This document shows positions 31,654 through 59,506 of a stretch of 64,000 nucleotides of DNA, one piece after another (within the stretch, counting starts at the first letter, position 1; the number at the start of each line of letters is the position of its first letter). A program made the translations under genes and the position numbers. The stretch lies in assembly GCF_988242995.1 (NCBI RefSeq), contig NZ_OZ547043.1; one strand, 5' to 3'. Below the pieces are notes generated by a model, which did not search any database, had not been told where the DNA came from, and saw only the letters and a program-made list of their open reading frames with translations.

Positions 31654-33015
31654 ATGTTTAAACCGGAACTCCTTTCCCCGGCGGGAACGCTGAAAAATAT
31701 GCGTTACGCTTTCGCTTATGGCGCAGATGCTGTTTATGCGGGCCAGCCGCGTTACTCCCTGCGTGTGCGCAACAACGAATTTAACCACGAAAATCTTCAG
31801 CTCGGCATCAATGAAGCCCACGCGCTGGGGAAAAAGTTTTATGTCGTGGTCAACATTGCACCGCACAACGCCAAGCTGAAAACCTTTATCCGTGACCTGA
31901 AACCGGTGGTGGAAATGGGGCCGGATGCGCTGATTATGTCTGATCCAGGGCTGATTATGCTGGTGCGCGAGCACTTCCCTGAAATGCCGATCCATCTCTC
32001 AGTACAGGCTAACGCCGTGAACTGGGCGACGGTGAAATTCTGGCAGCAAATGGGTCTGACCCGCGTGATCCTCTCTCGCGAACTGTCACTGGAAGAGATT
32101 GAAGAGATCCGCAATCAGGTGCCAGATATGGAGATCGAAATCTTCGTTCACGGCGCGCTGTGCATGGCCTACTCCGGTCGCTGCCTGCTCTCTGGCTATA
32201 TCAACAAGCGCGACCCGAACCAGGGCACCTGCACCAACGCCTGCCGCTGGGAGTACAACGTCCAGGAAGGGAAAGAAGATGACGTTGGCAACATCGTGCA
32301 CAAGTACGAGCCGATTCCGGTGCAAAATGTTGAGCCGACGCTGGGTATCGGCGCACCAACTGACAAAGTGTTTATGATCGAAGAAGCCCAGCGTCCGGGC
32401 GAGTATATGACCGCGTTTGAAGATGAGCACGGCACTTACATCATGAACTCGAAAGATCTGCGCGCTATCGCCCACGTTGAACGCCTGACCAAAATGGGCG
32501 TGCATTCGCTGAAAATCGAAGGCCGTACTAAATCTTTCTACTATTGCGCACGCACCGCACAGGTTTACCGTAAAGCTATCGATGACGCCGCTGCGGGCAA
32601 ACCGTTCGATACCAGCCTGCTGGAAACTCTGGAAGGTCTGGCGCATCGTGGCTATACCGAAGGTTTCCTGCGTCGTCATACTCACGACGATTATCAGAAC
32701 TACGAATACGGTTATTCAGTTTCTGACCGCCAGCAGTTTGTTGGTGAGTTTACCGGTGAGCGCAAGGGCGACCTCGCGGCGGTAGCGGTGAAAAATAAAT
32801 TCTCCGTTGGCGACAGCCTTGAGCTGATGACGCCGCAAGGCAACATTAATTTTACCCTTGAGCACATGGAAAACGCCAAAGGTGAAGCTATGCCGGTCGC
32901 ACCAGGCGATGGTTATACTGTGTGGATCCCGGTGCCGCAGGATCTTGAGCTAAATTACGCGCTGCTGATGCGTAATTTCTCCGGGGAAACCACGCGTAAC
33001 CCCCACGGTAAGTGA
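31654..33015 (+). CDS. yegQ: Peptidase U32-family protein YegQ (TrhP-type)
   Basis: 453-aa ORF beginning MFKPELLSPAGTLKNMRYAFAYGADAVYAG; Cys-rich U32 motif region. Confidence 0.9.
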   Translation: MFKPELLSPAGTLKNMRYAFAYGADAVYAGQPRYSLRVRNNEFNHENLQLGINEAHALGKKFYVVVNIAPHNAKLKTFIRDLKPVVEMGPDALIMSDPGLIMLVREHFPEMPIHLSVQANAVNWATVKFWQQMGLTRVILSRELSLEEIEEIRNQVPDMEIEIFVHGALCMAYSGRCLLSGYINKRDPNQGTCTNACRWEYNVQEGKEDDVGNIVHKYEPIPVQNVEPTLGIGAPTDKVFMIEEAQRPGEYMTAFEDEHGTYIMNSKDLRAIAHVERLTKMGVHSLKIEGRTKSFYYCARTAQVYRKAIDDAAAGKPFDTSLLETLEGLAHRGYTEGFLRRHTHDDYQNYEYGYSVSDRQQFVGEFTGERKGDLAAVAVKNKFSVGDSLELMTPQGNINFTLEHMENAKGEAMPVAPGDGYTVWIPVPQDLELNYALLMRNFSGETTRNPHGK

Positions 33016-33287: not shown

Positions 33288-33506
33288 TTACATCCACATA
33301 ATTTGCTGCCCTGACGGCAACGGGTGCGGTCTTACGGCGTGGACTTCTCCCGGCTTCACGATGTATCGCTGTACCGACTCATAAGTGATGAATGTGGCGC
33401 TGCAATTCACGTTCTGACACTGGTGATAACGCTCTTTTGTCGTGTCAGTGATATAGCGGCTTGTACGCGCATGTGCGGCATGCTGGCATAAAGGACAATG
33501 AAACAT
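33288..33506 (-). CDS. ogr: Late-gene transcription activator Ogr (Cys4 zinc finger)
   Basis: ORF track 33288..33569; start at ATG 33506 (MFHCPLCQHAAHARTSRYITDTTKERYHQCQNVNCSATF...), giving 72 aa. Confidence 0.9.
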   Translation of the reverse strand: MFHCPLCQHAAHARTSRYITDTTKERYHQCQNVNCSATFITYESVQRYIVKPGEVHAVRPHPLPSGQQIMWM

Positions 33507-33587: not shown

Positions 33588-34751
33588 TCACTCATCATCT
33601 TCTGTTTCGTACTCCACATCAGAAAGCCTGACCTCAAGCTCTAAGGACGTCGTGAAGCCGCTATTATTCAGAAAATGTGTCACCTTAGTGATTGTCCAGT
33701 CCTGCTCGTCTATGACGCGCTTAAAGCCTGATACTTTAACCGGTGTTTCCGTGTAAATATCAGCACGACCGGTAGCCAGGCTGATGGAGAACTCCGCAAC
33801 GCCCCGTTGCAGTTTATCCCACTTCGCCTGAGCGGCACGCATGGCCTGTGCTTTCGTGGCATATACCGTGGTCAGGGCAAAAACGTTGTCAGCCTCACCG
33901 GCCATGTATTCACCTTCGCGCGCTTCCGGTACTTTTGGCGCTTTCTTCTGCCTGACCGGTTTTGCTTTCGGGTGCTCCAGTGCGCGCAGGTGTTTTTCTT
34001 TCTTTTTGCGTTTCAGTTTTACCTTCTGCTTTTGCGGCTTCGGGTCTTTGGTGTGTAACCACTTTGCCGTTACGCCGGTATAGGCTCCACGGTCAGCAAT
34101 CGCAAAATGATGGCGGTCGCCGTCGCTGCGGGTGATGGTGACCTGCGGGATTTTTTTACCGCTGGCCGTCACCCCCTGCCCCGCTTTGAGAAACAGCAGT
34201 TTTCCCATTTTTACCGACACCTCACCGCCGTTGCGTTCTGCAAGACGGGTCAGGAATTTCGCATCAGACTCCTGCGACTGGTCGATGTGCGGGATTTTAA
34301 TTCCGGCCAGTGACGGCGCGACACTGGCTTCCAGCTTGTTACGGGAGGCTATCGCCTCAACAATCGCACCGAGCGTGGTGTCATGCCATGAGCCTTCACG
34401 GCGGGAATTGAGCGTCCCGCGAAAATCTGCACTCCGGGCGCGGATGGTGACCACATCCGGTGCGCCCCGGTGTTCAACCTCATCAACGGTAAATTTCCCT
34501 TTGCATACCAGGGCAAAACCTTTCCAGCCGATATACACCGTCAGAACAGCACCACGAACCGGCAGTTCGACCTGCCCGTCGGCATCGTTCAGTTCAATAT
34601 CAAGCTGGTCAGCCTCAAAGCCCCGGTTATCCGTCAGGGTCATGCTCATCAGACGGTCGCTGATATTGCCGGTAATATCCCTGCTGTCGAGCATCAGCAT
34701 GTAATCCGGCGTCAGCGTACTGCCTGCATCAAATGTCAGCGCATCCAGCAT
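33588..34751 (-). CDS. D: P2 gpD-like tail protein
   Basis: 387-aa ORF in the conserved position after ogr; lysine-rich central segment. Confidence 0.85.
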   Translation of the reverse strand: MLDALTFDAGSTLTPDYMLMLDSRDITGNISDRLMSMTLTDNRGFEADQLDIELNDADGQVELPVRGAVLTVYIGWKGFALVCKGKFTVDEVEHRGAPDVVTIRARSADFRGTLNSRREGSWHDTTLGAIVEAIASRNKLEASVAPSLAGIKIPHIDQSQESDAKFLTRLAERNGGEVSVKMGKLLFLKAGQGVTASGKKIPQVTITRSDGDRHHFAIADRGAYTGVTAKWLHTKDPKPQKQKVKLKRKKKEKHLRALEHPKAKPVRQKKAPKVPEAREGEYMAGEADNVFALTTVYATKAQAMRAAQAKWDKLQRGVAEFSISLATGRADIYTETPVKVSGFKRVIDEQDWTITKVTHFLNNSGFTTSLELEVRLSDVEYETEDDE

Positions 34752-35230
34752 TATCCTGCCCCCGTCATACCCGTGAATCTGGTCGCCATACTGCCGGCCT
34801 TACCGATGAGCGACTCCGCCTGTTTACCAATATCGCCATAAAGCGCGGCCAGTGATTCATCAACGCGGGTGAGAGACAGCGTAAAATCAATTTTCCGGGG
34901 TGTGCCGTCTGCAAAGAAAATACTCCCTGTTTCACTCACCCTGCTGATGACATACATGCCGTAAATCATGCCGGTGCCATCCAGCAACGGCCACGCCCGG
35001 CCTTCCTCTGCCATCAGCCTGAGAGTGGTCATCGTCAGCTTGCCGCCGGTCAGTTCGGGATAAAGCACACCGGCAAGCGTGATGTTTTCCTCGCCAACGC
35101 CGAGAAACTGATAGGCATCCCGTTTACCGATACGGGAATTTGAAGGCCAGCGATAATCAGATTCACGCTGCATGGTCTGGTGTGGCAACGTCTGGCGCAT
35201 AAAAACAAACATACCTAACGCGAGCATCAT
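34751..35230 (-). CDS. U: P2 gpU-like tail protein
   Basis: 159-aa ORF between T and D, stop/start overlapping D. Confidence 0.85.
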   Translation of the reverse strand: MMLALGMFVFMRQTLPHQTMQRESDYRWPSNSRIGKRDAYQFLGVGEENITLAGVLYPELTGGKLTMTTLRLMAEEGRAWPLLDGTGMIYGMYVISRVSETGSIFFADGTPRKIDFTLSLTRVDESLAALYGDIGKQAESLIGKAGSMATRFTGMTGAG

Positions 35231-35244
35231 TTTTCGTCACCTCC

Positions 35245-37692
35245 TTAACCGTCATGCATCATGCTGGCACGGGCGCGCGCACGTTTATCCCGCTCGTATT
35301 TTTCGAGCGCATCCTGTAACTGGCGGTCAAGCTGTGTCCCCGGCGCAGTACCGCCCGTCAGGTTGATGTGATATTCGTTTTTACTCTGGTCCACATAAGA
35401 GCGGCCAGCCAGTGCCGTGACTGGCTGATAAGCCTGATAGCCTGCATAAGAGCTGGTCGCCGGAATATAACCACCGGTGCCATACGTGGCGGCATGAGTT
35501 CTGGCGGCGGTCTGGTCAAGTGTGTCTGACTCTTTGTTGATGACCCCGAGCTTTTCCAGTACCCAGTCAATACCGCTGCGCAGTTTGTTGAACGCATTAA
35601 GCGGCAGCATCAACGCGTCAGCCAGTGCCTGCCCGAACATGACGCCCGTATCACGGCAACGGTTCAGGGTGTCCCGGGTGGCTTTGACCGGGGCAATCAG
35701 GTTTTTAAACCACTGCCACGCGGCCTGTAACTTTTCGCCCAGCCAGTCAAACACCGGCTTAAGTGGCGTGAACAGTTCCCCCACCGGCGCAAATGCCGCT
35801 TTCAGCCCTTCAACCACACCGCCAAAGAATGCGCTGACAGGCTCCCAGTATTTACGGATAAGTAACGCCCCGGCGACAATGGCGGCCACCACGGCCACAA
35901 CCGGCCAGCTAATCGCCCCGATGGCCGTCATAACAGCACTGCCAACCGTCGTGAAGATTGCTCCCATTGCGCCTGCTGCCGCGATGATGGCATTGATGCC
36001 GGTGATAACCGGCCAGGCTACGAGGCCAATGGCACCGATGACACCAATCAGCGCCAGTGCACCACCGACAATGATGCCGATGGTTGACGCCAGTGATTTG
36101 TTTTTCTGTATCCAGCCGTCGAGTTTTAACACATACTTTGTGGCCGTCTGCGTGAGCTTACGCAGTGCGCCTTCCTGCTGGTCAAACAGGTCAGTCCCCA
36201 CCGCCTCATAAGCGGACTGAAACTCCTTAAAGTCACCGCCGAGGTTGTCCTGCATGATATTTACCAGCTCGGCGGTCTTCCCGTCTGAGGCTTTAAACGC
36301 AGCGGTCAGTTTGTCCAGCTTTCCAGTTGAGGCGGCAGTCATCAGCACGGCGGCGGCTGAGCTGGCCTCCTCCCCGAAAATAGTTTTCATGTATTCAGCC
36401 TGCTGGGCAGTACCGAGCCGGTTTTTCTCAAAACTGGCCTGCATTTCTTTCAGAATGGTAAATACTGGTCGAGTATTCCCTTTACTGTCTGAGGTTTTCA
36501 CGCCAAGCTCTTTCAGTGCATCCCATGCTTTTCCCGTCGGTGCCTGCAGGCGGCTTAACACGGCACGGCTTCCCGTCCCCGCCATTGAACCGGTAATTTT
36601 TGCATCATGCAGCGCCCCGACCATTGCGGCGGTTTCTTCAATGCTGACACCAGCATTTTTTGCCACAGGTGCGGCATAGGTCAGCGCATCGCTCATGCCA
36701 TCAAAATCGGCGGCGGTTTTGTTCATCGTCATGGAGAGAACATCCCCGATATGAGCGACCTTATCGTTTGAAAGCTGAAAGGCGGATTTCATCCCCATCA
36801 GCAGGGCGGCGTTTTCTTCCATCGTGCGACGGTTCGCCAACGCCATATTCAGCGTGACCGGCGTTGCCGCCTGAATGGCATCAACATCCCCACCGGCTTT
36901 CGCAATAATAATCTGCGCACCGGCTGCATCATCTGCCGAGGCTGCGGTATTGTCGCCGAGCTGGCGCGCCTGCTTGCGTAGTGCAGCCATTTCGGCGGAG
37001 TCTTTTGCCACACCGAGCACAGCCTGCAATTCTGAGTTTTTCTGCGCAAACTCATAACCGGGCATCAGCAACTTAACTCCGGCCATCGTTCCCGCAGCAG
37101 CAATCCCCACACCGGCAGCGCCCACTGAGGCCATATTTCCGGCCAGTTCCTTTCCGGCCTGATAACGCTGTTTTACTGCGTTAAGTTTTGCCTGTTGTGC
37201 ACTGACACGCGCCAGCGCGTCACGCTGACGGTTAAGCTGTGCGGTGGTTTCACTGATACGGTTTTTCAGTCCCTGCTCATCATGTGCAAGATTGCGGGTA
37301 TTAATTCCCACAGCGGCCAGTTCCCGCTGCTGGCGTTTAATGGAATCTGTCAGGCGGTTATATTTCGCCTGTAAGTCCTCCGCCGCACGCTTTGCGGATT
37401 CCAGCACTTTCGCCTGAGCACGGGTCGGACGTTCAGTGTTTTTAAGCTGTGTGGCAAGGGCTTCGGCTTCCTGCCGTGCCTTTTCAAGTGCATGACCAGT
37501 CACGGCAAGCTGTGCGCTGGTCTTGCGAAATCCCTCAATACGGGATGCGTGACCGTTCAGCTCGCGCAGTGATTTTTGTGTTTCCCGGATATCCCCCGAC
37601 AGCGACTTACTCGCTGTGCGGATGGATTTAAACGGGCGGGATGCCTGGTCAACAGCCCTGAGCAATACCTGTAATTTTACATTGTTACTCAT
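35245..37692 (-). CDS. T: Tail tape-measure protein gpT
   Basis: 815-aa ORF, coiled-coil-rich with Ala/Gly-rich TM-like stretches; follows E/E'. Confidence 0.85.
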   Translation of the reverse strand: MSNNVKLQVLLRAVDQASRPFKSIRTASKSLSGDIRETQKSLRELNGHASRIEGFRKTSAQLAVTGHALEKARQEAEALATQLKNTERPTRAQAKVLESAKRAAEDLQAKYNRLTDSIKRQQRELAAVGINTRNLAHDEQGLKNRISETTAQLNRQRDALARVSAQQAKLNAVKQRYQAGKELAGNMASVGAAGVGIAAAGTMAGVKLLMPGYEFAQKNSELQAVLGVAKDSAEMAALRKQARQLGDNTAASADDAAGAQIIIAKAGGDVDAIQAATPVTLNMALANRRTMEENAALLMGMKSAFQLSNDKVAHIGDVLSMTMNKTAADFDGMSDALTYAAPVAKNAGVSIEETAAMVGALHDAKITGSMAGTGSRAVLSRLQAPTGKAWDALKELGVKTSDSKGNTRPVFTILKEMQASFEKNRLGTAQQAEYMKTIFGEEASSAAAVLMTAASTGKLDKLTAAFKASDGKTAELVNIMQDNLGGDFKEFQSAYEAVGTDLFDQQEGALRKLTQTATKYVLKLDGWIQKNKSLASTIGIIVGGALALIGVIGAIGLVAWPVITGINAIIAAAGAMGAIFTTVGSAVMTAIGAISWPVVAVVAAIVAGALLIRKYWEPVSAFFGGVVEGLKAAFAPVGELFTPLKPVFDWLGEKLQAAWQWFKNLIAPVKATRDTLNRCRDTGVMFGQALADALMLPLNAFNKLRSGIDWVLEKLGVINKESDTLDQTAARTHAATYGTGGYIPATSSYAGYQAYQPVTALAGRSYVDQSKNEYHINLTGGTAPGTQLDRQLQDALEKYERDKRARARASMMHDG

Positions 37693-37836
37693 TCGTGTTT
37701 CCGCTTCGCCGGAGCGCCTTTTCGCGCCATGTGATGAGTTCGGTCAGGCTCATGGGATACAGTTCTGATGGCGGCCAGTGAAATATCACTGCCACATCCG
37801 CCATCAGGTCATCGACCGAGAGATTTTTCGGGAACG

Positions 37837-38112
37837 TTACTGCACCGAGTTCGGCGACAAAAAACCGACCACCTTACCGGCCAGCGCCACAAGGTCAGGC
37901 AGTTCCAGCGCGGCGACTTCCTGCTCGGTCAGCATCGGTGCCGTCATGCGCGGCAGCACCTTAATCAGTGCATCGACTTCGGAGTTCGCGACCGCAGCCA
38001 GACTGACACCGCGCAGCGTCCCGGCATTAGGTTTCATCAGCGTGACCTGTTCGATAACCTGCTCACCACGCTTGACCGGATTGTCCAGGGTAATCACATT
38101 TTCTTTGTTCAT
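37837..38112 (-). CDS. E: Tail assembly chaperone gpE (E+E' made by -1 frameshift)
   Basis: 91-aa ORF MNKENVITLDNPVKRGEQVIEQVTLMKPNAGTLRGV...; C-terminal G-F-L codons form the slippery heptamer. Confidence 0.85.
   Translation of the reverse strand: MNKENVITLDNPVKRGEQVIEQVTLMKPNAGTLRGVSLAAVANSEVDALIKVLPRMTAPMLTEQEVAALELPDLVALAGKVVGFLSPNSVQ
37858..37864 (-). other. Programmed -1 ribosomal frameshift slippery site T_TTT_TTG for gpE+E'
   Basis: Minus-strand codons GGT-TTT-TTG near the 3' end of E give the canonical X_XXY_YYZ heptamer; conserved chaperone frameshift of long-tailed phages. Confidence 0.65.
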
Positions 38113-38168
38113 GGTTTTCTCACTTCTGAATCGGGGTTAACCGGTCAGCCAGGCTGACCGGATGAAAA

Positions 38169-38687
38169 TCACAGGCCGATATTGCGGCGGTGTTGCTCCA
38201 GCCGGTCGACGCCGTTCACCTTCTCAATCATGTTGATGGTGTCGATTTCGACCAGCTCCTTACCGTCCATCGTCAGCCGGAAATAGGTGCAGACCACGGA
38301 GATTTTCGACTCGGTGTCTTCTCCCTGTTTGCCCTCGCCGGTGTCGATTTCTTTCTGACGTCCACGCATGACCACCTCGACGGCCACCGTTTCGCCGGTA
38401 TCGTCGCGCTGGTAAGAGCCTGCAAAACGAATCGGTACGGAATCCACACCGGTTGCGGCGTAAAGCTCCCAGATAACCGAATCCGGGAAGCCACCGAGCG
38501 ACCACTCCATTGACAGCGCATCGTCATCAAGGCCGAGGTCTACCGGTGCGCTGCCGTTCATCCCCGCACCGCGATAGTTTTCGAGCTTACGGGTCAGTTT
38601 TGGTAGCGTGACGGACTTCGCGACGCCCTGATAGCTGTAGCCGTTCAGAAAGACGTTCATTAACTTGAGTTTGCGCGGCATTGCCAT
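38169..38687 (-). CDS. FII: Tail tube protein gpFII
   Basis: 172-aa ORF immediately downstream of FI. Confidence 0.85.
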   Translation of the reverse strand: MAMPRKLKLMNVFLNGYSYQGVAKSVTLPKLTRKLENYRGAGMNGSAPVDLGLDDDALSMEWSLGGFPDSVIWELYAATGVDSVPIRFAGSYQRDDTGETVAVEVVMRGRQKEIDTGEGKQGEDTESKISVVCTYFRLTMDGKELVEIDTINMIEKVNGVDRLEQHRRNIGL

Positions 38688-38699
38688 CGGTCAGGCTCC

Positions 38700-39890
38700 T
38701 TAATTGCTGTTAACCGAGGTGACCAGATTTGCCAGGTATTTATCGGTAATACGCTGGCGCAGGGTCAGGTTTTCAAGAGGAGGCACCGGTGTATAGTCGT
38801 AGTCGATATACAGTTTTCCGGCCTTGAGGGTTTCCGCATCGTTGGATTCTTCGCTGAACCAGCAGGTCGCATCCACGATATAGCCGTTTGTTTTCAGCTC
38901 ACGGAATTTGGCATTGATGCCGTCAACGATGTCGCGAATCAGCGTTGCGGTGATGGGCTTGTCCACCGCCCACATGTGCGCCTCAGCCATCGTGTCGGCC
39001 ATCACCTGCGCGGTGCGGGTGTAGTTTTCAAAGAGGAACAGCGGGTCATCAGAGCAGGTACGGTTACCCCAGAATCGGAAACCGTCGCGGCGAATCAGCG
39101 TAGTGACGCCTGACTCGTTAAGCAGGTCAGCATCGGTGCCGGACTCCTGCAAATCCCAGAATACAGATGCGCTGATGCCGGTAACACCGTTTACCCCGAC
39201 GTTGGACAGCGTTTTATGCCAGCCCTGCTCCTGGTCGATTTTAGCGCGCAGACCCAGCGCACGGGCGGTGGCATACGCGGTGGCGGTGGTACTGGTGACC
39301 GTATCCCATGCGAGGAAATCCGGCCAGATGACCATCAGCTCACGCTGGCTGAAATTCTGGCGGTAGGCTTTCACCTCGGAAATGGTCTTACAGCCCCATG
39401 CGCTGATATATCCGAAAGCGCGCAGCTTCTGACAGACGGATGCCAGTGCAACAGCCACCTCTTTGGTATCCAGTCCCGGCACGCCGAGAATACGCGGTTT
39501 AACACCGGTTACCGACTCCGCCGCCAGCAGGGCTTTCAGTCCGGTGTACTGACCGTTTTCGTCGGTGGTGCCGATGATATTGGAAACGGTCTGCGCAAGT
39601 TTCGTTTCCTCGTCATCACCGGTGCCGTCTTCCACGCGCACGACAACGGTGACCGGTTTTGACTGGTCAGCGATGGCCTGCAACGATGCCGCCAGCGTGC
39701 CTTTTTTACCGGCCTTTGCAATTGCGCTCTGCACATTGGTAATCAGCACCGGTTTATTGAGGGGGAAGGTTTCCGCATCCGCATCGCTGGCCGTGCAGAC
39801 CATGCCGACAATGGCAGTGGATACGGTGGAAATGACGCGGGTGCCGTCGTTAATCTCCAGCACCTGCACGCCGTGATGATAGTCACTCAT
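38700..39890 (-). CDS. FI: Contractile tail sheath protein gpFI
   Basis: 396-aa ORF beginning MSDYHHGVQVLEINDGTRVISTVSTAIVG. Confidence 0.9.
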   Translation of the reverse strand: MSDYHHGVQVLEINDGTRVISTVSTAIVGMVCTASDADAETFPLNKPVLITNVQSAIAKAGKKGTLAASLQAIADQSKPVTVVVRVEDGTGDDEETKLAQTVSNIIGTTDENGQYTGLKALLAAESVTGVKPRILGVPGLDTKEVAVALASVCQKLRAFGYISAWGCKTISEVKAYRQNFSQRELMVIWPDFLAWDTVTSTTATAYATARALGLRAKIDQEQGWHKTLSNVGVNGVTGISASVFWDLQESGTDADLLNESGVTTLIRRDGFRFWGNRTCSDDPLFLFENYTRTAQVMADTMAEAHMWAVDKPITATLIRDIVDGINAKFRELKTNGYIVDATCWFSEESNDAETLKAGKLYIDYDYTPVPPLENLTLRQRITDKYLANLVTSVNSN

Positions 39891-40257
39891 CCGTTTAACT
39901 CCGTGGTTAATGGGTGCAACTATTTTCTGTTGTGCAGAGCATGAGACGCTATTTGCCCTGGATGGTCAGTGGATGAAACAACAGATACAGAAAAGGCGGG
40001 CAATTCGCCCGCATTTCCTAATTTGTACTAACCCAGCTTCCAACTGACAATTTACGTAGCCAAAAAGCTATCAAGTCTGGCAGACTGATTTGTACGAGGT
40101 GTGGATAACCATAATTATGTGCATGCTAACATCACGGTGCATGAGTCAATCGGGTCTATGCCAAAGAATTACGCCTTGATTGACCATAGATTGCTTGCCC
40201 TTGAATTTGACCATTCCAATAAAATGAATTATGATAATCGTCAAATGGAGGTGCACA

Positions 40258-40902
40258 ATGATCAAACACACCGCAGCAGAAAGGGAAACCAACACTTCAG
40301 CTAAGCTGAATGAATACCAGTTGAACCTTCTGAAAAGAATTAACAACCTCGCTATTTCCCTGATGCCTGAATTTGAAGACAAAAACCAGGCAATTAATGC
40401 TATCACGCTGGATGATAGTTCACTGATGCAATTGCTCTACACCGTTCAACTCGAACAGAAGACTCGTGTCAATGACTACGAACTACGTAAAGTGCGCCGT
40501 CGTCGCGAAAATCTGGAACGATTTTATCGTGGGCTTCAGGAGTTAGGCGGTACGCTAAAGGTAAATGACGTGGTCGATATTCTTGGAATCACCCGCCAGG
40601 CGATCAACATTCGCGTTAAGAAGAACAAGCTTTTAGCATTCAAGCAGAACGGTGATTTTATTTTCCCGAAATTTCAGTTCACAGATAACGGGCTGATTCC
40701 CGGCTTTGAAGACGTAATGGCGGCATTTGACGAGAATACCCATCCAATGCTGAGGTTGGGTGTGCTGAAATCACCAATAGAGGTTAATAGCGAAGGCCTG
40801 AAAAAGACGCCGATTCAAATCATGCAGGACGGCGCTAAAAATAGTGAACTTAGTCTGGCTATCCGTGCCGCTAAACAGTTCGGAAATCATGTATCCAGTT
40901 AA
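40258..40902 (+). CDS. Hotspot cargo: HTH protein with C-terminal MbcA/ParS (DUF2384)-like toxin-binding region; putative antitoxin or regulator
   Basis: ORF track 40231..40902; ATG 40258 has a GGAGG RBS, giving 214 aa. Central HTH-like segment (VVDILGITRQAINIRVKKN); C-terminal SPIEVNSEGLKKTPIQIMQDG...LSLAIRAAKQFG resembles the MbcA/ParS toxin-binding domain as recalled; not in the P2 core. Confidence 0.45.
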   Translation: MIKHTAAERETNTSAKLNEYQLNLLKRINNLAISLMPEFEDKNQAINAITLDDSSLMQLLYTVQLEQKTRVNDYELRKVRRRRENLERFYRGLQELGGTLKVNDVVDILGITRQAINIRVKKNKLLAFKQNGDFIFPKFQFTDNGLIPGFEDVMAAFDENTHPMLRLGVLKSPIEVNSEGLKKTPIQIMQDGAKNSELSLAIRAAKQFGNHVSS

Positions 40903-40908
40903 TTGTTT

Positions 40909-40940
40909 TAAAAAGAGGGGCTAGCCAGCCCCTCTTTGGT
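40909..40940. terminator. Bidirectional intrinsic terminator between the convergent cargo genes
   Basis: Hairpin AGAGGGGCT-AGCC-AGCCCCTCT flanked by T-rich runs on both strands, lying in the 38-bp gap between the two stop codons. Confidence 0.6.
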
Positions 40941-41651
40941 TTACATTGGTTCTGGCGTAATTTCGAATCCAAGCAGTTCTTCGAACATCTCTTCACCTGA
41001 CATCGTTCCTTTGTGCCACCCTTTAGGGAAGATACCTTCGTCATTTTCGATGTAACTGGCATAAGGCACCATCCCCTGAGGGGTATCGGTAAAGGCTGGT
41101 GTACTATCCGGTCGTTCCCAAAAGGCATAACAGCGTTTATAGCGTTTATGCCTTGAGGTATAGGCTATCCCGTCATAGTCACGCCCGAAATGTGTATAAA
41201 GATGTTCCATTAGCCATTGAGTAAAAGTGTAATCCTCGTTCTCTAAGCTATCCAAAGGAATATGTAACAACTCACAGAGCGCTACAACATCGATCACTTT
41301 CACTGGCCTCATGACATCCACAGAGCACATATAGTGTTGTGAAAGTACCGATTCAGGATAAGAAATCGTCCCTTCGAGATGGAGCAAACGCCCATAAGCT
41401 TCTGCCGCCGCCGTTAACGCAGAGTCAGAGGCATACCATACCGCCACACATCCCCCTGGGGGGTTGTATCGCCCACATTCATTTTCCTCAATTGGCGCTC
41501 TGAAGTTGATTGCGCTTTCATACAACGCCCTTTGATGACGCTTCAAAAGACCAGAGCCTGGTTGAATGTCAATCGCCGGAATACGTCCAGATTTATTTTT
41601 TGCAGCAATTCCTTGTGCAACAATATTTTTTTCAAATGTCCATTTGGTCAT
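40941..41651 (-). CDS. Hotspot cargo: RES-domain protein (putative NAD+-consuming toxin)
   Basis: ORF track 40941..41699; ATG 41651 has an AAGGAG RBS, giving 236 aa. N-terminal CGRYNPPGGCVAVWYASDSALTAAAE matches the RES signature GGRWNPP...Y.A.S...A..E (Arg, Glu); later DGIAYTSRH supplies the conserved Ser. Confidence 0.55.
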   Translation of the reverse strand: MTKWTFEKNIVAQGIAAKNKSGRIPAIDIQPGSGLLKRHQRALYESAINFRAPIEENECGRYNPPGGCVAVWYASDSALTAAAEAYGRLLHLEGTISYPESVLSQHYMCSVDVMRPVKVIDVVALCELLHIPLDSLENEDYTFTQWLMEHLYTHFGRDYDGIAYTSRHKRYKRCYAFWERPDSTPAFTDTPQGMVPYASYIENDEGIFPKGWHKGTMSGEEMFEELLGFEITPEPM

Positions 41652-42066
41652 TTTTACTACTCCTTCTATAAACAGATTAAGCCATAGGCTCCTCTCCATA
41701 TTGATTGAAAATAATCCCTACCGTGCTTGCCCGGCAGGGGGTATGAGAACATGTGTATCTCAATCTCGATTATACCAAGCAAATTTTCTATTTTTCGGAA
41801 ATTTAGAGAGTTTTTTTAATGCTTCGCATGCCTTCTCGATGTATTGATGGGGCTGAAAAGAAGAAATAACGCAGGAAGTTTTACGGAAAGGAGAACTATA
41901 AAGATTTTTTTCAAGTGAATTAGAAATAAGAACTTCGCAGGATACTGCATTTTTAGTGAAGATGGGTTGAGTTTCTCAGCAAGAGTCCCGCGAGAGCCGT
42001 ATTGACAGCATGCATGACTCGGAGATTATTCCCCATGCAGGATGGTACACCAATGCAAGAGTTGGT

Positions 42067-42345: not shown

Positions 42346-42924
42346 TTATTGTGGCATTTCAGGCCATTCTATATCCGGAGCATCTTCCGGCTGAACGCGA
42401 TTCAGTAGCACACGGTATTTTTTCCAGTGTGTCAGGCTTAACTTTTCTTCCTCGGTAGCCATATCTAAATCGACAGCATCCTGCAGCGTGGCAATAATTT
42501 CACCTGCATATGCAATCAGCTCTTTCTTCTGAGAGTCAGCCGCTCTGACAAGCGCATCACGCTCTGCATTCTCATCATTCACCCACGCATTTCCGTTCCA
42601 TTTCTGATAATCCCCATCCGGGGAAATGGCTGTCACGTCTGGAGGTAATGCGCCAAGTTCAGAAATATAAATGGCTGCTCCCGTTTTCGTTTCGTAGACA
42701 GTCTTTCCGCGATGATCTTCCATCAACTCCCATTTTATTTCATCTGCATTGAAAACGGCTGCATAACCAGCCGGTATATCAGGCGGCGCAATATCTGTAC
42801 TGTTTGCAGGCAGACCTGTATACGGTGGAATATACGCGTCACTTTCCCCAATAAATTCATTGGTTCCATCAAGTAAATTAAATACGCGGATAGTTTGTGC
42901 TTCTGCACTCATTCTGAAAGCCAT
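42346..42924 (-). CDS. G: Tail fiber assembly chaperone (gpG/Tfa-like)
   Basis: 192-aa ORF immediately downstream of and overlapping the tail fiber gene stop; conserved position. Confidence 0.7.
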
Positions 42925-45542
42925 TATGCAAGCCTCACAATATAGTTAAATGCGATGTTTTTTACGGTATTTTCTGTATTACCTGTAGCATTAACGGTAA
43001 TAGAGTGCCCGTGTGAGCCAATAGCAACCGTGTGTGAATGTGCACCAATACCAACAGTATGGTTATGTGCTCCAATGTCGACTGTATGTGCATGATTGCC
43101 TGATGAACTTGTAGTCGTAGCACCTTTATCACTTCGCGGAACACCATAATCTGCACCGCCTGATTGCACGCTCACAGCAAAACCGACGGTATGTGTATGA
43201 TTGCCAGAAGTATTGGTTGATTTTGTGCCGTGGTTAAACGTACTGACTGTTTTTGTCCCGTAATCAAATGAACTGGTTGTTTTCGTTCCCAAATCCGTAT
43301 TTGACGCACTGGCGCTGTGAGTATGCGATTTAATCCCGTCCTGTTCCTGTGACAATACGGCACGCCCACTGGCAGGTTTGCCCTTGATTGTCCAGCCGCG
43401 CATATCAGGAATAACACCTGAAGGATAGGCAACAGCCAGTTTCGGATATGCAGCCTTATCAAACGTCTGCCCCTGCATAATTGCATAGCCCGCAGGTGGT
43501 GTATCTGATGGCCACGGCAACGGAACACCTGGCGGAAACGCTTCAATATCTTTCGTCCCGTCAAACGTTACGCCATTAATCGCCCTTGCCGTTTTCAGCT
43601 TTGTAGCTGTAGCCGCATTGCCGGACAGTTCGCCTGAAAGACCGGCGCTGAAGGTTTGTTTCGCCGCCCATGTCTGAGCTTCGTCGATAATTGGCACACG
43701 TCTTGTCGTGATCGTGCGGCTTCCCGGATTTCCTGAAATACGCACCATAAAAAAGCGGTAGTTCGCTTTACTTACAGTGCTGCGCCATACATGCATTGAG
43801 CGCCCAGTACCGGAATCATCACTCGGACCAACTGCGATGTTTATCAGGTTGCCATCAATGACGCCCCAGTCCATACCGTCGGGAATATTGGTCATGTTAT
43901 CAAGCCGAACGGTTATCAGACTGCCCGGCACAAAGTCGTGGGTCTGCCAGTCCAGGCTGGTGAGTTTTGCCACTGCACCGCCGATACCCAGATTCAGGGG
44001 AAGTGAATACGAGGTGTAGACTTCCCGCCATTCGCTCCACGAGCTGCCGGTATAGACGCGCTCAAACGTGCGACCTTTAAGGGTTGCACCTGTTCCGGCA
44101 GTTGTATAACGCTGCCATACGTTAACACCATCAAAGCGCCTCAACACTTCCAGAATACCGAGGACTGTCACGCCGTTTCCGTCCAGTATTGGACCGTTGG
44201 TCGCTTTACCTGTAACGCTGTAAATACCTGGTGAAGTCACATCATTCAAATCCCCGTCGTAATAACGACTCTCTGACTGATGACCGACTCTTAACCACGG
44301 TTCCCACTGCGGATTTGATGCATCCCAGCTTGCCGCAAGGCAGCGGACATACATATTTCCACGGCGAGTGGTATAACGTTGCGTTCTTCCATAATTCCCG
44401 CCTTCGAGGATCTCAAGCGTCCCCTGAGCAAAGCCGCCTTCCTCTGGATAATTGCGTTCATATGAAGCTATAGCCGAGCTACTGTTACGCCATAAACCAA
44501 GATGTTCGGCGGCTCCAAGCGTATTCAGGTCTATAGTCGTACTCAAAGGGCGGGTAGCTGATTGAGTGTGACGCCATACGCCCCATGGACCATCAGTACC
44601 ATTCCACTGATTGGCGAGTTTACGCATGTATACATTGCCGTCTCTCGTGATAAAGCGTTGCGTGCCTGCAAAATTGCCGGCAGCAAAAACCTCAAGCACA
44701 CCGACAGCATTATCTTCCGGGAAATTTTTCTCCAGTGTTGCGTTAGTTGAGGTAGCTTTAGACCAGATCCCCAGATAAGCCTTAACGGGACCAAATGTAT
44801 TCAGATCAGCATCAACCGGCATTTCGCCGTTGTTTTTCATAAACGTCAGGCTGGTAACGCCAACATTGTCCAGAAAAGCGTCCTTATCTGGAATATCGCC
44901 ACCGTTCTGGTCTTTCTGCAGACGTTTCTCAGCATTGTCATAGGCTGCTTTTACTGCCTTTGGCGTTGCCGCCAGCTTTTCACTGGTGCTGTTTGTTGCA
45001 CTGCTTAACTGAGTAAAACCTTTTTCTGTCAGCGTGGCGTCAGGATGGCGGCGGGACTGCTCATGCTCTGCGATTTTGTCATCGACGTAATCCTGCGTCG
45101 CCATCACCGTGCTGGCATCAATACTCAGCTCAACGGACGCCACGTTGCTGAGAATAATAACCATGCGGCAGGTCTGCGCACGTCCGGAGCCTTCAGCCAG
45201 TTCTGGCTTATAGCTTTCTGCCATGTTGGATACCGCAATCAGTGTTCCGGCATCGTCATACAGACCAAGCTCACGCATCCAGAAGCCGCCCACTTCGGGC
45301 GGTACAACCAGTTCAGCCACGATATAGTTTTTATTCTTGTTATCCACGCTGACTTTATTCAGAGCGTGACGCCAGACCTCATGCACCAGTTTCGTCTGAC
45401 CGGCATCCGGCACCGGCAATTTGCCATTACCGTCACCCACGGCCATTGCAGACAGGTTTACTTTTTTCCCGCCGGGGACAGTGGCGGCTGCCAGCTTTGC
45501 GGCTCCGGCAGTAGTGATAACGGTTTTAAATTTCGTGCTCAT
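42924..45542 (-). CDS. H: Tail fiber protein gpH, mosaic, with His-box-rich C-terminal receptor-binding region
   Basis: 872-aa ORF; P2 H-like N-terminus ([40 protein letters not shown]...); C-terminal repeated GNHxHTV/GxHxH motifs. Confidence 0.85.
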
Positions 45543-57554: not shown

Positions 57555-59387
57555 TCAAACAGAGCCCTGTTCAAAAACAGTATCAAAATATGGTAGGAGA
57601 GGATAAGCACACAGAAAGAAAATCAGGATGCATGCATATGTCGTTGTTTCATCGTAACAAGCATTAGTATATAAATTACCATGTGCTAATTTATGTCTTA
57701 AGGTTGCCCCACTCTTTCTGTTAAAAAGAACATCGATAGTCAAAACAAGATTTTTAGAAAAGATACTTTCCAAATCATCTCTGCATTTATCTAGAAGCTG
57801 AGAAATACTTGTTGACTCCTCTAATCCCTTATCCAAATATCTAGTAGCATCCTTTCCACTAAGCTCATAATAATAACGAACCATACCTTCCATTTGTGGT
57901 ATTAAAAGATAAGCTGCACTGATGTAATCTCCCTGCCATAATTTGTAAAAGCCCAAATTAAAAATCTCCCTAAACTCCGGCTTGACAATTGGACTAGTTG
58001 TAACCAATTTAACGAATGTTGACAACGTCAAGCCATGTTCTTGAGAAAGTACATAGCGAGCAGGTTCAAAGACACCGTTTACAAAAATCTTATGAGTAAT
58101 CTCGAAATTTCTTAGATATTGATCAATAACAACATCATCACTCATATCTTTTTTATTATCCAACGGCGGGATTGTATATATCTTACGCCCACTCTCATCA
58201 TTAATTTCTGTTCCAACAAAACTAGAGAATAAACTTTTTTCTGATAATCTTAAAACTTGTTCCCTCATGCTTTCAATATTTTCAATCGGTGTTTCACTCA
58301 TTAAAACTTTGAATATATCGGGCAAAGAACGCCCCGTCAGTTTTTTTTCACTTTCAGCAACCAAGTCACTAATATCAATAGAATGGCTTAAAGTGACATA
58401 TTCACTCCTTACTTCTTCTCTCAAATTAGCAAGTTGTTCCTTTAAATCTTCTATCTGTTGGCTATCACCACCGTACTGTCTTAATTCAGAGATAGCTGTT
58501 CTTAACCAAGAGATCTTACCCATATTATCAGGTCGTTCTGTTGCAACTTTAATAGTAATATTTGCAGATGCCAGTTTACATCTCTTGGCACGTTCATACT
58601 CACCATTTTTTTCATAAATAACTGCACTTGTCATATAAAGTGATTTTACAGCATCATAATATTTTTTATCTTTATGCTGCTCAGCCATCTTCTCAGCATT
58701 TTCCGCATACTGCAGATTATACCCATCAAAATCACGCACCATAAACCAAGTCAAATTATTGAAACCTTCAAAGATTAATCTTTCATTTTGAATACTATAA
58801 AGAGAATGAATGGCATTTTTAATCGCCATGTTTCCTTCTGATTTTCTAGGGTAGACCATTTTATTAATGTGCAAAGCCCTAGCAATATAATCACGAGCAA
58901 AAATAAAGCAATTTAAATCACTTTCATCCATGCTTTCGTTTTTTATTATTAGCTTTTCAATTGCTATATTTAGCATTTCAGCATAGGAATCAATTGCTTT
59001 AATTGCCACGTCTTTATTTTTCCGATTATTACACCAAACAACATCATATATTCTTGATAACAAAAATGGATTGGTTATTTTTTGAGAAACATATAAAAGA
59101 CAGTCATTCACCTGCTCATCAAAATCTTCAGGCAATATTGATCTTTTATTACCCCAAATCATTTGGGGTTCAAATGCTGGAGTGTTGTTAACAACTTGCA
59201 AATTGAAACTATATAGCATACCAAAAAGAGATGCTAATTTTTTCTCTTTGGGGTTTTCTGATGACTCAGCAATCCCATCCAGATATTTTTTTATTTTATG
59301 TGCATGAAATGTAACTGGTATATACATAAAAACACTATAATCTAGTGTTTCAAGCTCTTCCCTTGTAAGAACAAAGATATCATTCAT
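57555..59387 (-). CDS. Hotspot cargo: large AT-rich protein of unknown family with C-terminal HEPN-like Rx4H motif; candidate anti-phage effector
   Basis: ORF track 57555..59492; likely start ATG 59387 with AAGGTGA RBS (MNDIFVLTREELETLDY...), giving 610 aa. Occupies the position of P2 tin/old; codon usage visibly AT-rich; no Walker A, TOPRIM or RT motif seen; LRHKLAHG near the C-terminus. Confidence 0.6.
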   Translation of the reverse strand: MNDIFVLTREELETLDYSVFMYIPVTFHAHKIKKYLDGIAESSENPKEKKLASLFGMLYSFNLQVVNNTPAFEPQMIWGNKRSILPEDFDEQVNDCLLYVSQKITNPFLLSRIYDVVWCNNRKNKDVAIKAIDSYAEMLNIAIEKLIIKNESMDESDLNCFIFARDYIARALHINKMVYPRKSEGNMAIKNAIHSLYSIQNERLIFEGFNNLTWFMVRDFDGYNLQYAENAEKMAEQHKDKKYYDAVKSLYMTSAVIYEKNGEYERAKRCKLASANITIKVATERPDNMGKISWLRTAISELRQYGGDSQQIEDLKEQLANLREEVRSEYVTLSHSIDISDLVAESEKKLTGRSLPDIFKVLMSETPIENIESMREQVLRLSEKSLFSSFVGTEINDESGRKIYTIPPLDNKKDMSDDVVIDQYLRNFEITHKIFVNGVFEPARYVLSQEHGLTLSTFVKLVTTSPIVKPEFREIFNLGFYKLWQGDYISAAYLLIPQMEGMVRYYYELSGKDATRYLDKGLEESTSISQLLDKCRDDLESIFSKNLVLTIDVLFNRKSGATLRHKLAHGNLYTNACYDETTTYACILIFFLCAYPLLPYFDTVFEQGSV

Positions 59388-59506
59388 CGTTTTCACCTTT
59401 TTCAGTATAAATTTGCACGCATTATTATTAGCAACATAATCATCAATAGTTAACACATGCAGATAGACAGCAATTTTACTATTATGCAACAAATTAAATC
59501 AGATGT

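Follow-up and report, generated by a model that had tools for sequence, protein, structure and literature searches.

A predicted P2-type -1 frameshift site joining the tail chaperone genes E and E' in a prophage

Tail genes and reading frames at the E/E' locus

The window, by which we mean the whole analyzed stretch of 64,000 nucleotides of contig NZ_OZ547043.1 (NCBI RefSeq assembly GCF_988242995.1), contains the late tail genes of a prophage on its minus strand (Table 1). The gene order FI-FII-E-T-U-D matches the map of phage P2, with E/E' between FII and T, and with U and D as the distal genes of this operon. The frames of FI, FII, E, T, U, D and Ogr are all open and have lengths equal to those of the P2 genes. 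From these reading frames the tail-core operon is apparently complete, and the suggestion that the site belongs to a functional-looking tail-assembly module was borne out as far as open genes, P2 lengths and Pfam domains can tell. The spacer of 56 nt between FII and E contains a perfect 10-bp palindrome (38141..38161, CCGGTCAGCC / GGCTGACCGG, arms 1 nt apart) and folds at -18.8 kcal/mol. At the equivalent position in phage 186 a 'partial terminator tI' is annotated, and the palindrome may lower the expression of E-T-U-D relative to the sheath and the tube.

Table 1. Tail genes of the prophage and elements of the E/E' locus, with positions in the window
Feature	Position	Strand	Details
FI, tail sheath, first gene of the F operon	38700..39890	-	396 aa; Pfam sheath domains
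FII, tail tube, immediately upstream of E	38169..38687	-	172 aa; PF04985 Phage_tube, 202.9 bits
E, tail assembly chaperone, zero-frame product	38112..37837	-	91 aa; ORF list and translation
Candidate slippery heptamer T_TTT_TTG (TTTTTTG)	37864..37858	-	zero-frame codons GGT TTT TTG = G-F-L
0/-1 overlap, both frames open	37873..37837	-	37 nt; E stop codon ends at 37837
Predicted E' extension	37858..37685	-	57 codons + stop, -1 frame from G37858; TAA 37687..37685
Predicted E+E' fusion	38112..37685	-	85 + 57 = 142 aa; junction between ...KVVGFL and VAELG...
T, tape measure	35245..37692	-	815 aa; PF10145 PhageMin_Tail, 155.7 bits
U	34751..35230	-	159 aa; Pfam Phage_P2_GpU, 150 bits
D	33588..34751	-	387 aa; Pfam Phage_GPD, 94 bits
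ogr	33288..33506	-	72 aa; Pfam Ogr_Delta

In the minus-strand translation, the C-terminal end of E reads ...KVVGFLSPNSVQ (also given as ...AGKVVGFLSPNSVQ) before the stop codon, and the underlying nucleotides at the 3' end of the gene are ...GTG GTC GGT TTT TTG TCG CCG AAC TCG GTG CAG TAA. The original prediction had placed a T_TTT_TTG heptamer in the GGT-TTT-TTG (G-F-L) codons at this end of E, and both the sequence and the phase are as it stated. Relative to E, the heptamer is in the X_XXY_YYZ phase that tandem -1 slippage needs. A TAA located 9 nt upstream of the heptamer closes the -1 frame, which confines a productive shift to the 37 nt of the overlap (37873..37837). Within these 37 nt exactly one in-phase X_XXY_YYZ motif is present, T_TTT_TTG.

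Translation downstream of the heptamer in the -1 frame yielded an open E' extension; the frame does not close within a few codons of the heptamer but continues for 57 codons to the TAA at 37687..37685. Read from the G of the heptamer, the E' peptide is VAELGAVTFPKNLSVDDLMADVAVIFHWPPSELYPMSLTELITWREKALRRSGNTNE, followed by the stop codon. It overlaps the start of T (ATG 37692) by 8 nt (AATGAGTAA). The predicted extension into the interval at the start of T therefore stands with its 57 open codons, and only its end needs a trivial correction, from 37693 to 37685. The predicted peptide spanning the junction of E and E' is ...GFLVAELGAVTFPK, and the predicted tryptic peptide over the junction is VVGFLVAELGAVTFPK.

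The motif as such is uninformative. TTTTTTG occurs 17 times in the window, compared to 16.9 ± 4.1 times in dinucleotide shuffles, and motif enrichment was dropped as an argument; as the heptamer alone is at chance frequency, the case rests on its context. One element of this context is codon usage, as TTG was used for none of the 24 other leucine codons in the flanking ORFs of the window.

Both frames match known protein families. The zero-frame E product matches PF10109 (Phage_TAC_7; 47 bits, cut-off 25), described as 'tail assembly chaperone proteins, E, or 41 or 14', and PHROG 103 ('tail protein', E = 2.6e-45). The -1 frame peptide matches PF06528 (Phage_P2_GpE; 78.7 bits, cut-off 23, E = 2e-22), the model of which covers only residues 19-54 of the peptide, and PHROG 1756 (E = 1.4e-28). 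In a search of NCBIfam with E, E' and the fusion, no model matched any of the three. An AlphaFold2 model of the 142-aa fusion, based on a 16-sequence alignment, has a mean pLDDT of 90 and a pTM of 0.79, and consists of a β-hairpin followed by helices, to which E' adds three further helices.

Identity with phage P2 and conservation among relatives

Over 451 nt spanning E, E' and the start of T, the window and phage P2 (AF063097) share 99% identity; the heptamer is the same in both, and E' is almost entirely so. The GenBank record of P2 contains a two-piece CDS with the description 'gpE+E'; shares amino terminus with gpE; -1 frameshift; essential tail protein', and the 'site of -1 translational frameshift' in this record is the base directly after the heptamer. 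When the P2 fusion was built in the same way as ours (through TTG, then GTC), a protein of 142 aa was obtained that exactly matches AAD03292.1 / NP_046780.1 / O64312, the last of which carries the name 'Tail assembly protein E'' in UniProt (TAPFS_BPP2). The fusion encoded in the window differs from it by a single residue change, S29N. The identity, the P2 annotation and the exact match of the P2 fusion together support the assignment of the site to the E+E' fusion of P2-like phages.

The two loci agree in their genes, heptamer, frame relation, product lengths (91 and 142 aa), location between FII and T, and extent of the overlap with T (8 nt). They differ in S29N and a few synonymous changes in E/E', in the stop codon of E (TGA in P2, TAA in the window), and in the other cargo genes present elsewhere in the prophage of the window. 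In their treatment of the site, Lynch et al. (PMC3091744) describe a shift at TTTTTTG in P2, by which a 142-aa E+E' is made beside the 91-aa E. The passage of PMC5009743 concerned with P2, citing Christie et al. (2002), puts its frameshift efficiency at 2-3 times that of lambda G-T. The E/E+E' frameshift site is an already known, textbook site of P2, and it is intact in the window.

The original prediction had also called the site conserved. A tblastn search with the fusion against 50,697 phage records matched 418 records, 401 of which covered at least 80% of the query. Among the matches listed (60 of 418), each record with at least 80% coverage aligns as two pieces, corresponding to two reading frames. 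For a comparison of the site itself 17 relatives were used, from more than 12 genera (Peduovirus, Eganvirus, Felsduovirus, Elveevirus, Citexvirus, Aresaunavirus, Simpcentumvirus, Xuanwuvirus, Baylorvirus, Vhmlvirus and others), with 35% to 80% identity to the fusion of the window. Each of the 17 encodes E' in the -1 frame, which extends upstream without interruption as far as the heptamer. The conservation is supported by an in-phase slippery heptamer in 17/17 of these diverged phages, with T_TTT_TTG in 13/17 and one variant each in Smp131 (T_TTT_TTT), Vibrio MAR (T_TTT_TTC), P88 (A_AAT_TTT) and Mannheimia PHL101 (G_GGA_AAG). In the phages of Burkholderia, Pseudomonas, Ralstonia and Halomonas, TTT accounts for 0% of the other phenylalanine codons and TTG for 0-13% of the leucine codons. 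The heptamer is therefore kept against codon usage, indicating selection on the nucleotide sequence and not only on the residues G-F-L.

The E/E' pairs of other Peduoviridae resemble the locus in the window in several respects. Phage 186 (orf51/orf52, gene H), KS5, KS14, KL3, Smp131, Milagro and RE-2010 share the -1 relation with an in-phase T_TTT_TTG, and in 186 and the other pairs E' ends at or near the start of the tape measure gene. The pairs differ from the locus in the window in protein identity (35-80%), in the heptamer in a few cases, and in the length of the N-terminal extension of E and the position of its stop codon. Of 5426 complete E. coli genomes, 1582 match a 601-nt query taken around the site; the P2-type element carrying it is common in this species, and the host of the prophage is very probably E. 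coli.

RNA context of the heptamer and alternative readings

E. coli dnaX (A_AAA_AAG) resembles the site studied here in its tandem -1 slippage on an X_XXY_YYZ heptamer, but has in addition an upstream Shine-Dalgarno (SD)-like element at about 10 nt and a downstream stem-loop at 5-9 nt, neither of which has a counterpart in the window by these criteria. The downstream stem-loop that the original prediction had proposed to look for was not found by folding against shuffles, by alignment folding or with Rfam: no conserved stimulatory stem-loop at canonical spacing was present in folds of 60, 73, 100 and 143 nt, in the folds of individual relatives or in the alignment fold. The 60 nt after the heptamer fold with z = +0.10 compared to shuffles. 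For the 45 nt after the heptamer, z is -1.16 in the window and ranges from -3.2 to +0.9 over 18 sequences, with no shared structure, and covariation contributes -0.03 kcal/mol when eight aligned enterobacterial sequences are folded together. A 5-bp hairpin starting 2 nt after the heptamer was rejected as too close, too weak and non-significant (73-nt fold z = 0.42). An Rfam scan of 37300..38300 gave nothing above the gathering score; two chance matches below threshold, flpD (18 bits, versus 40) and UCA1 (15 bits, versus 80), lie on the opposite strand. The portion of Lynch et al. (PMC3091744) on this subject lists no hairpins within 60 bp for KS5, KS14 and KL3 and cites their absence in P2. 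As none is reported for P2 there either, the missing stem-loop does not weaken the reading of the site as a frameshift signal.

Upstream of the heptamer, an SD-like sequence TAAGGTGGT (also given as TAAGGUGGU and TAAGGTGG) is found at 37867..37875, at a distance of 3 nt. Its pairing with the anti-SD (-8.1 kcal/mol) ranks in the top 1.3% of 9-mers of the locus. The best SD-like sites in the relatives range from -1.5 to -10.6 kcal/mol with a spacing of 0 to 15 nt, two relatives have none, and GAGGTG/GGAGGT motifs occur 2-15 nt upstream of the heptamer in many relatives, though not in all. The upstream SD-like sequence was rejected as a stimulator since its strength and spacing are inconsistent across relatives and it is confounded by conserved (K/E)-V codons. 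Some 50 nt downstream of the heptamer, E' contains a perfect 10-bp inverted repeat (37807..37798 / 37774..37765, CTGATGGCGG / CCGCCATCAG, arms separated by 23 nt), and a 100-nt fold containing it has z = -3.2. The repeat encodes the conserved LMAD...WPPS; in enterobacterial relatives its conservation is that of coding sequence only, and covariation is absent. It is unlikely that such undescribed cis elements (the SD-like TAAGGUGGU and the inverted repeat) tune the efficiency of P2-type sites; the repeat could alternatively modulate the translation of T. As no stimulatory RNA element was found, the efficiency is not predictable from the sequence.

Based on the heptamer in its phase, the two conserved frames and the near-identity with P2, the site is most probably (at a probability of about 0.96, judged from sequence) a programmed -1 ribosomal frameshift of the E/E+E' chaperone pair of a P2-type (Peduovirus) prophage. 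On GGU UUU UUG most ribosomes would keep the zero frame and terminate 6 codons further on, producing the 91-aa gpE. In a minority, the P-site tRNA-Phe paired with UUU and the A-site tRNA-Leu paired with UUG would both move back by one base onto U_UUU_UU; such slippage reportedly occurs at about 10% in P2. Translation would then continue with GUC in the -1 frame for 57 codons, yielding the 142-aa gpE+E' that ends just inside the start of T. In this manner the frameshift would fix the ratio of gpE to gpE+E'. Complementation experiments are said to have demonstrated that E' is essential in P2. By analogy with gpG/gpGT of lambda, the shared E part may coat the tape measure protein while the E' domain may recruit tube subunits, and gpE and gpE+E' would act as assembly factors instead of being major parts of the virion. 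The slippage itself, the essentiality of E' and the division of labor between E and E' are thus presumed here from published work on P2 and lambda. The lambda genes are likewise two overlapping ORFs between the major tail/tube gene and the tape measure gene, and neither they nor the P2 type need a strong stimulatory RNA structure; they differ in that the heptamer of lambda is G_GGA_AAG and that P2 has a contractile tail with a sheath. The tail-chaperone frameshift of long-tailed phages is presented as conserved in the section of PMC5009743 that summarizes it (Levin, 1993; Xu, Hendrix and Duda, 2004, 2013, 2014).

The same -1 frame could also be expressed without any frameshift, as a separate gene E' that starts at its own ATG (37804) and encodes a 39-aa 'GpE family phage tail protein'. 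RefSeq records of E. coli carry a stand-alone CDS of 120 nt exactly there, several phage records do likewise, and the PF06528 match (residues 19-54) corresponds to the part downstream of this ATG. However, the ATG is not conserved: 6/17 relatives (RE2010, Kp4871-2, Ralstonia, Vibrio MAR, Acidovorax and PHL101) have V, A, W or I at the aligned residue, and in all 17 no stop interrupts the -1 frame between the heptamer and this position. The 18 residues preceding the ATG are kept as protein, with the pattern VAE.G...FP..LSVDDL in P2, 186, YenM and Kp4886 and.AEG....P.RVEDA in beta- and gammaproteobacterial phages, and the 14 nt before the ATG (CGGTCGATGACCTG) contain no SD-like sequence. Both the reference annotation of P2 and the relevant part of PMC3091744 give the fusion as the essential product, and we consider an independently initiated E' very improbable. 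Also very improbable is slippage of RNA polymerase on the six-T run, by which one U would be added to some mRNAs and E+E' would result from normal translation. The site is a homopolymer here (T6) and in Smp131 (T7), and an mRNA with one inserted base would encode the very protein that a -1 ribosomal shift produces. Yet the heptamers of P88 (A_AAT_TTT) and PHL101 (G_GGA_AAG) are non-homopolymeric and fit re-pairing of tRNAs, not slippage of the polymerase, and the motif holds its phase with respect to E without exception. Runs of 6 are, moreover, short for efficient slippage by bacterial RNA polymerase. The P2 record and PMC3091744, where it deals with the site, also describe the frameshift as translational.

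In the third reading the T-run is the tail of a terminator-like hairpin within E (GCUGGCCGG-UAAGGU-GGUCGGU, then UUUUUUG) that attenuates T, U and D, and its likeness to a frameshift site is coincidental. Although a consensus scan flags a stem of 8 pairs with the T-run at 37885..37864, the scan gave 2 overlapping matches where 1.2 ± 1.1 were expected in shuffles, half of the pairs are G-U, and the minimum-free-energy fold of the 30 nt upstream omits the hairpin. In the relatives the upstream pairing is not conserved, whereas the T-run is. As the conserved, Pfam-matching ORF in the -1 frame is also left unexplained, a terminator appears extremely improbable.

Annotation and prophage surroundings

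In the RefSeq/PGAP annotation of E. coli, E' appears as an independent 39-aa 'GpE family phage tail protein', for instance in two loci that we designate L003 (1897..2016) and L021 (6897..7016); both annotations are the equivalent of 37804..37685 in the window. This annotation gap is systematic: since RefSeq lists E' as a separate protein of 39 aa, standard E. coli annotations and most proteomes lack the 142-aa product. The fusion of the window, in its exact 142-aa form, is absent from a collection of 15 billion proteins, in which the P2 version is present. The value of the site in the window is one of annotation only, and the understanding of frameshifting or tail assembly is unchanged by it. 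The intact E/E+E' signal, together with full-length FI, FII, T, U and D, is relevant to the question of whether the prophage could still make particles.

The ogr end of the prophage adjoins a chromosomal U32 peptidase gene (31654..33015; Pfam Peptidase_U32, 298 bits), and the second end is located outside the window. In another E. coli strain with an E region that is 100% identical, the prophage lies beside fieF/pfkA. These different chromosomal neighbors indicate that the same tail module occurs at different integration sites.

A pair of convergent, AT-rich (43% GC) genes (40231..41699) occupies the position that Z/fun has in P2, with FI on one side and the tail-fibre assembly gene G on the other. 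The plus-strand ORF (223 aa) has no Pfam or PADLOC match, and the minus-strand ORF (252 aa) contains a RES domain (PF08808, 48 bits). The pair resembles a RES-toxin module that the prophage carries as cargo, and it is absent from PADLOC. In the old/tin slot of P2, between Q and the gpA-like replication gene, a 645-aa ORF (57555..59492, minus strand) with 33% GC has a DUF7380 match and a weak DUF4209 match, and matches the PADLOC candidate defence family PDC-S39 (282 bits). Finally, the tail-fibre ORF at the position of P2 H (42924..45542, minus strand) encodes 872 aa and is longer than the 764-aa tail fibre (L021, 770..3064) of another prophage whose E region is identical; P2-type prophages that are otherwise almost the same differ in their receptor-binding modules.
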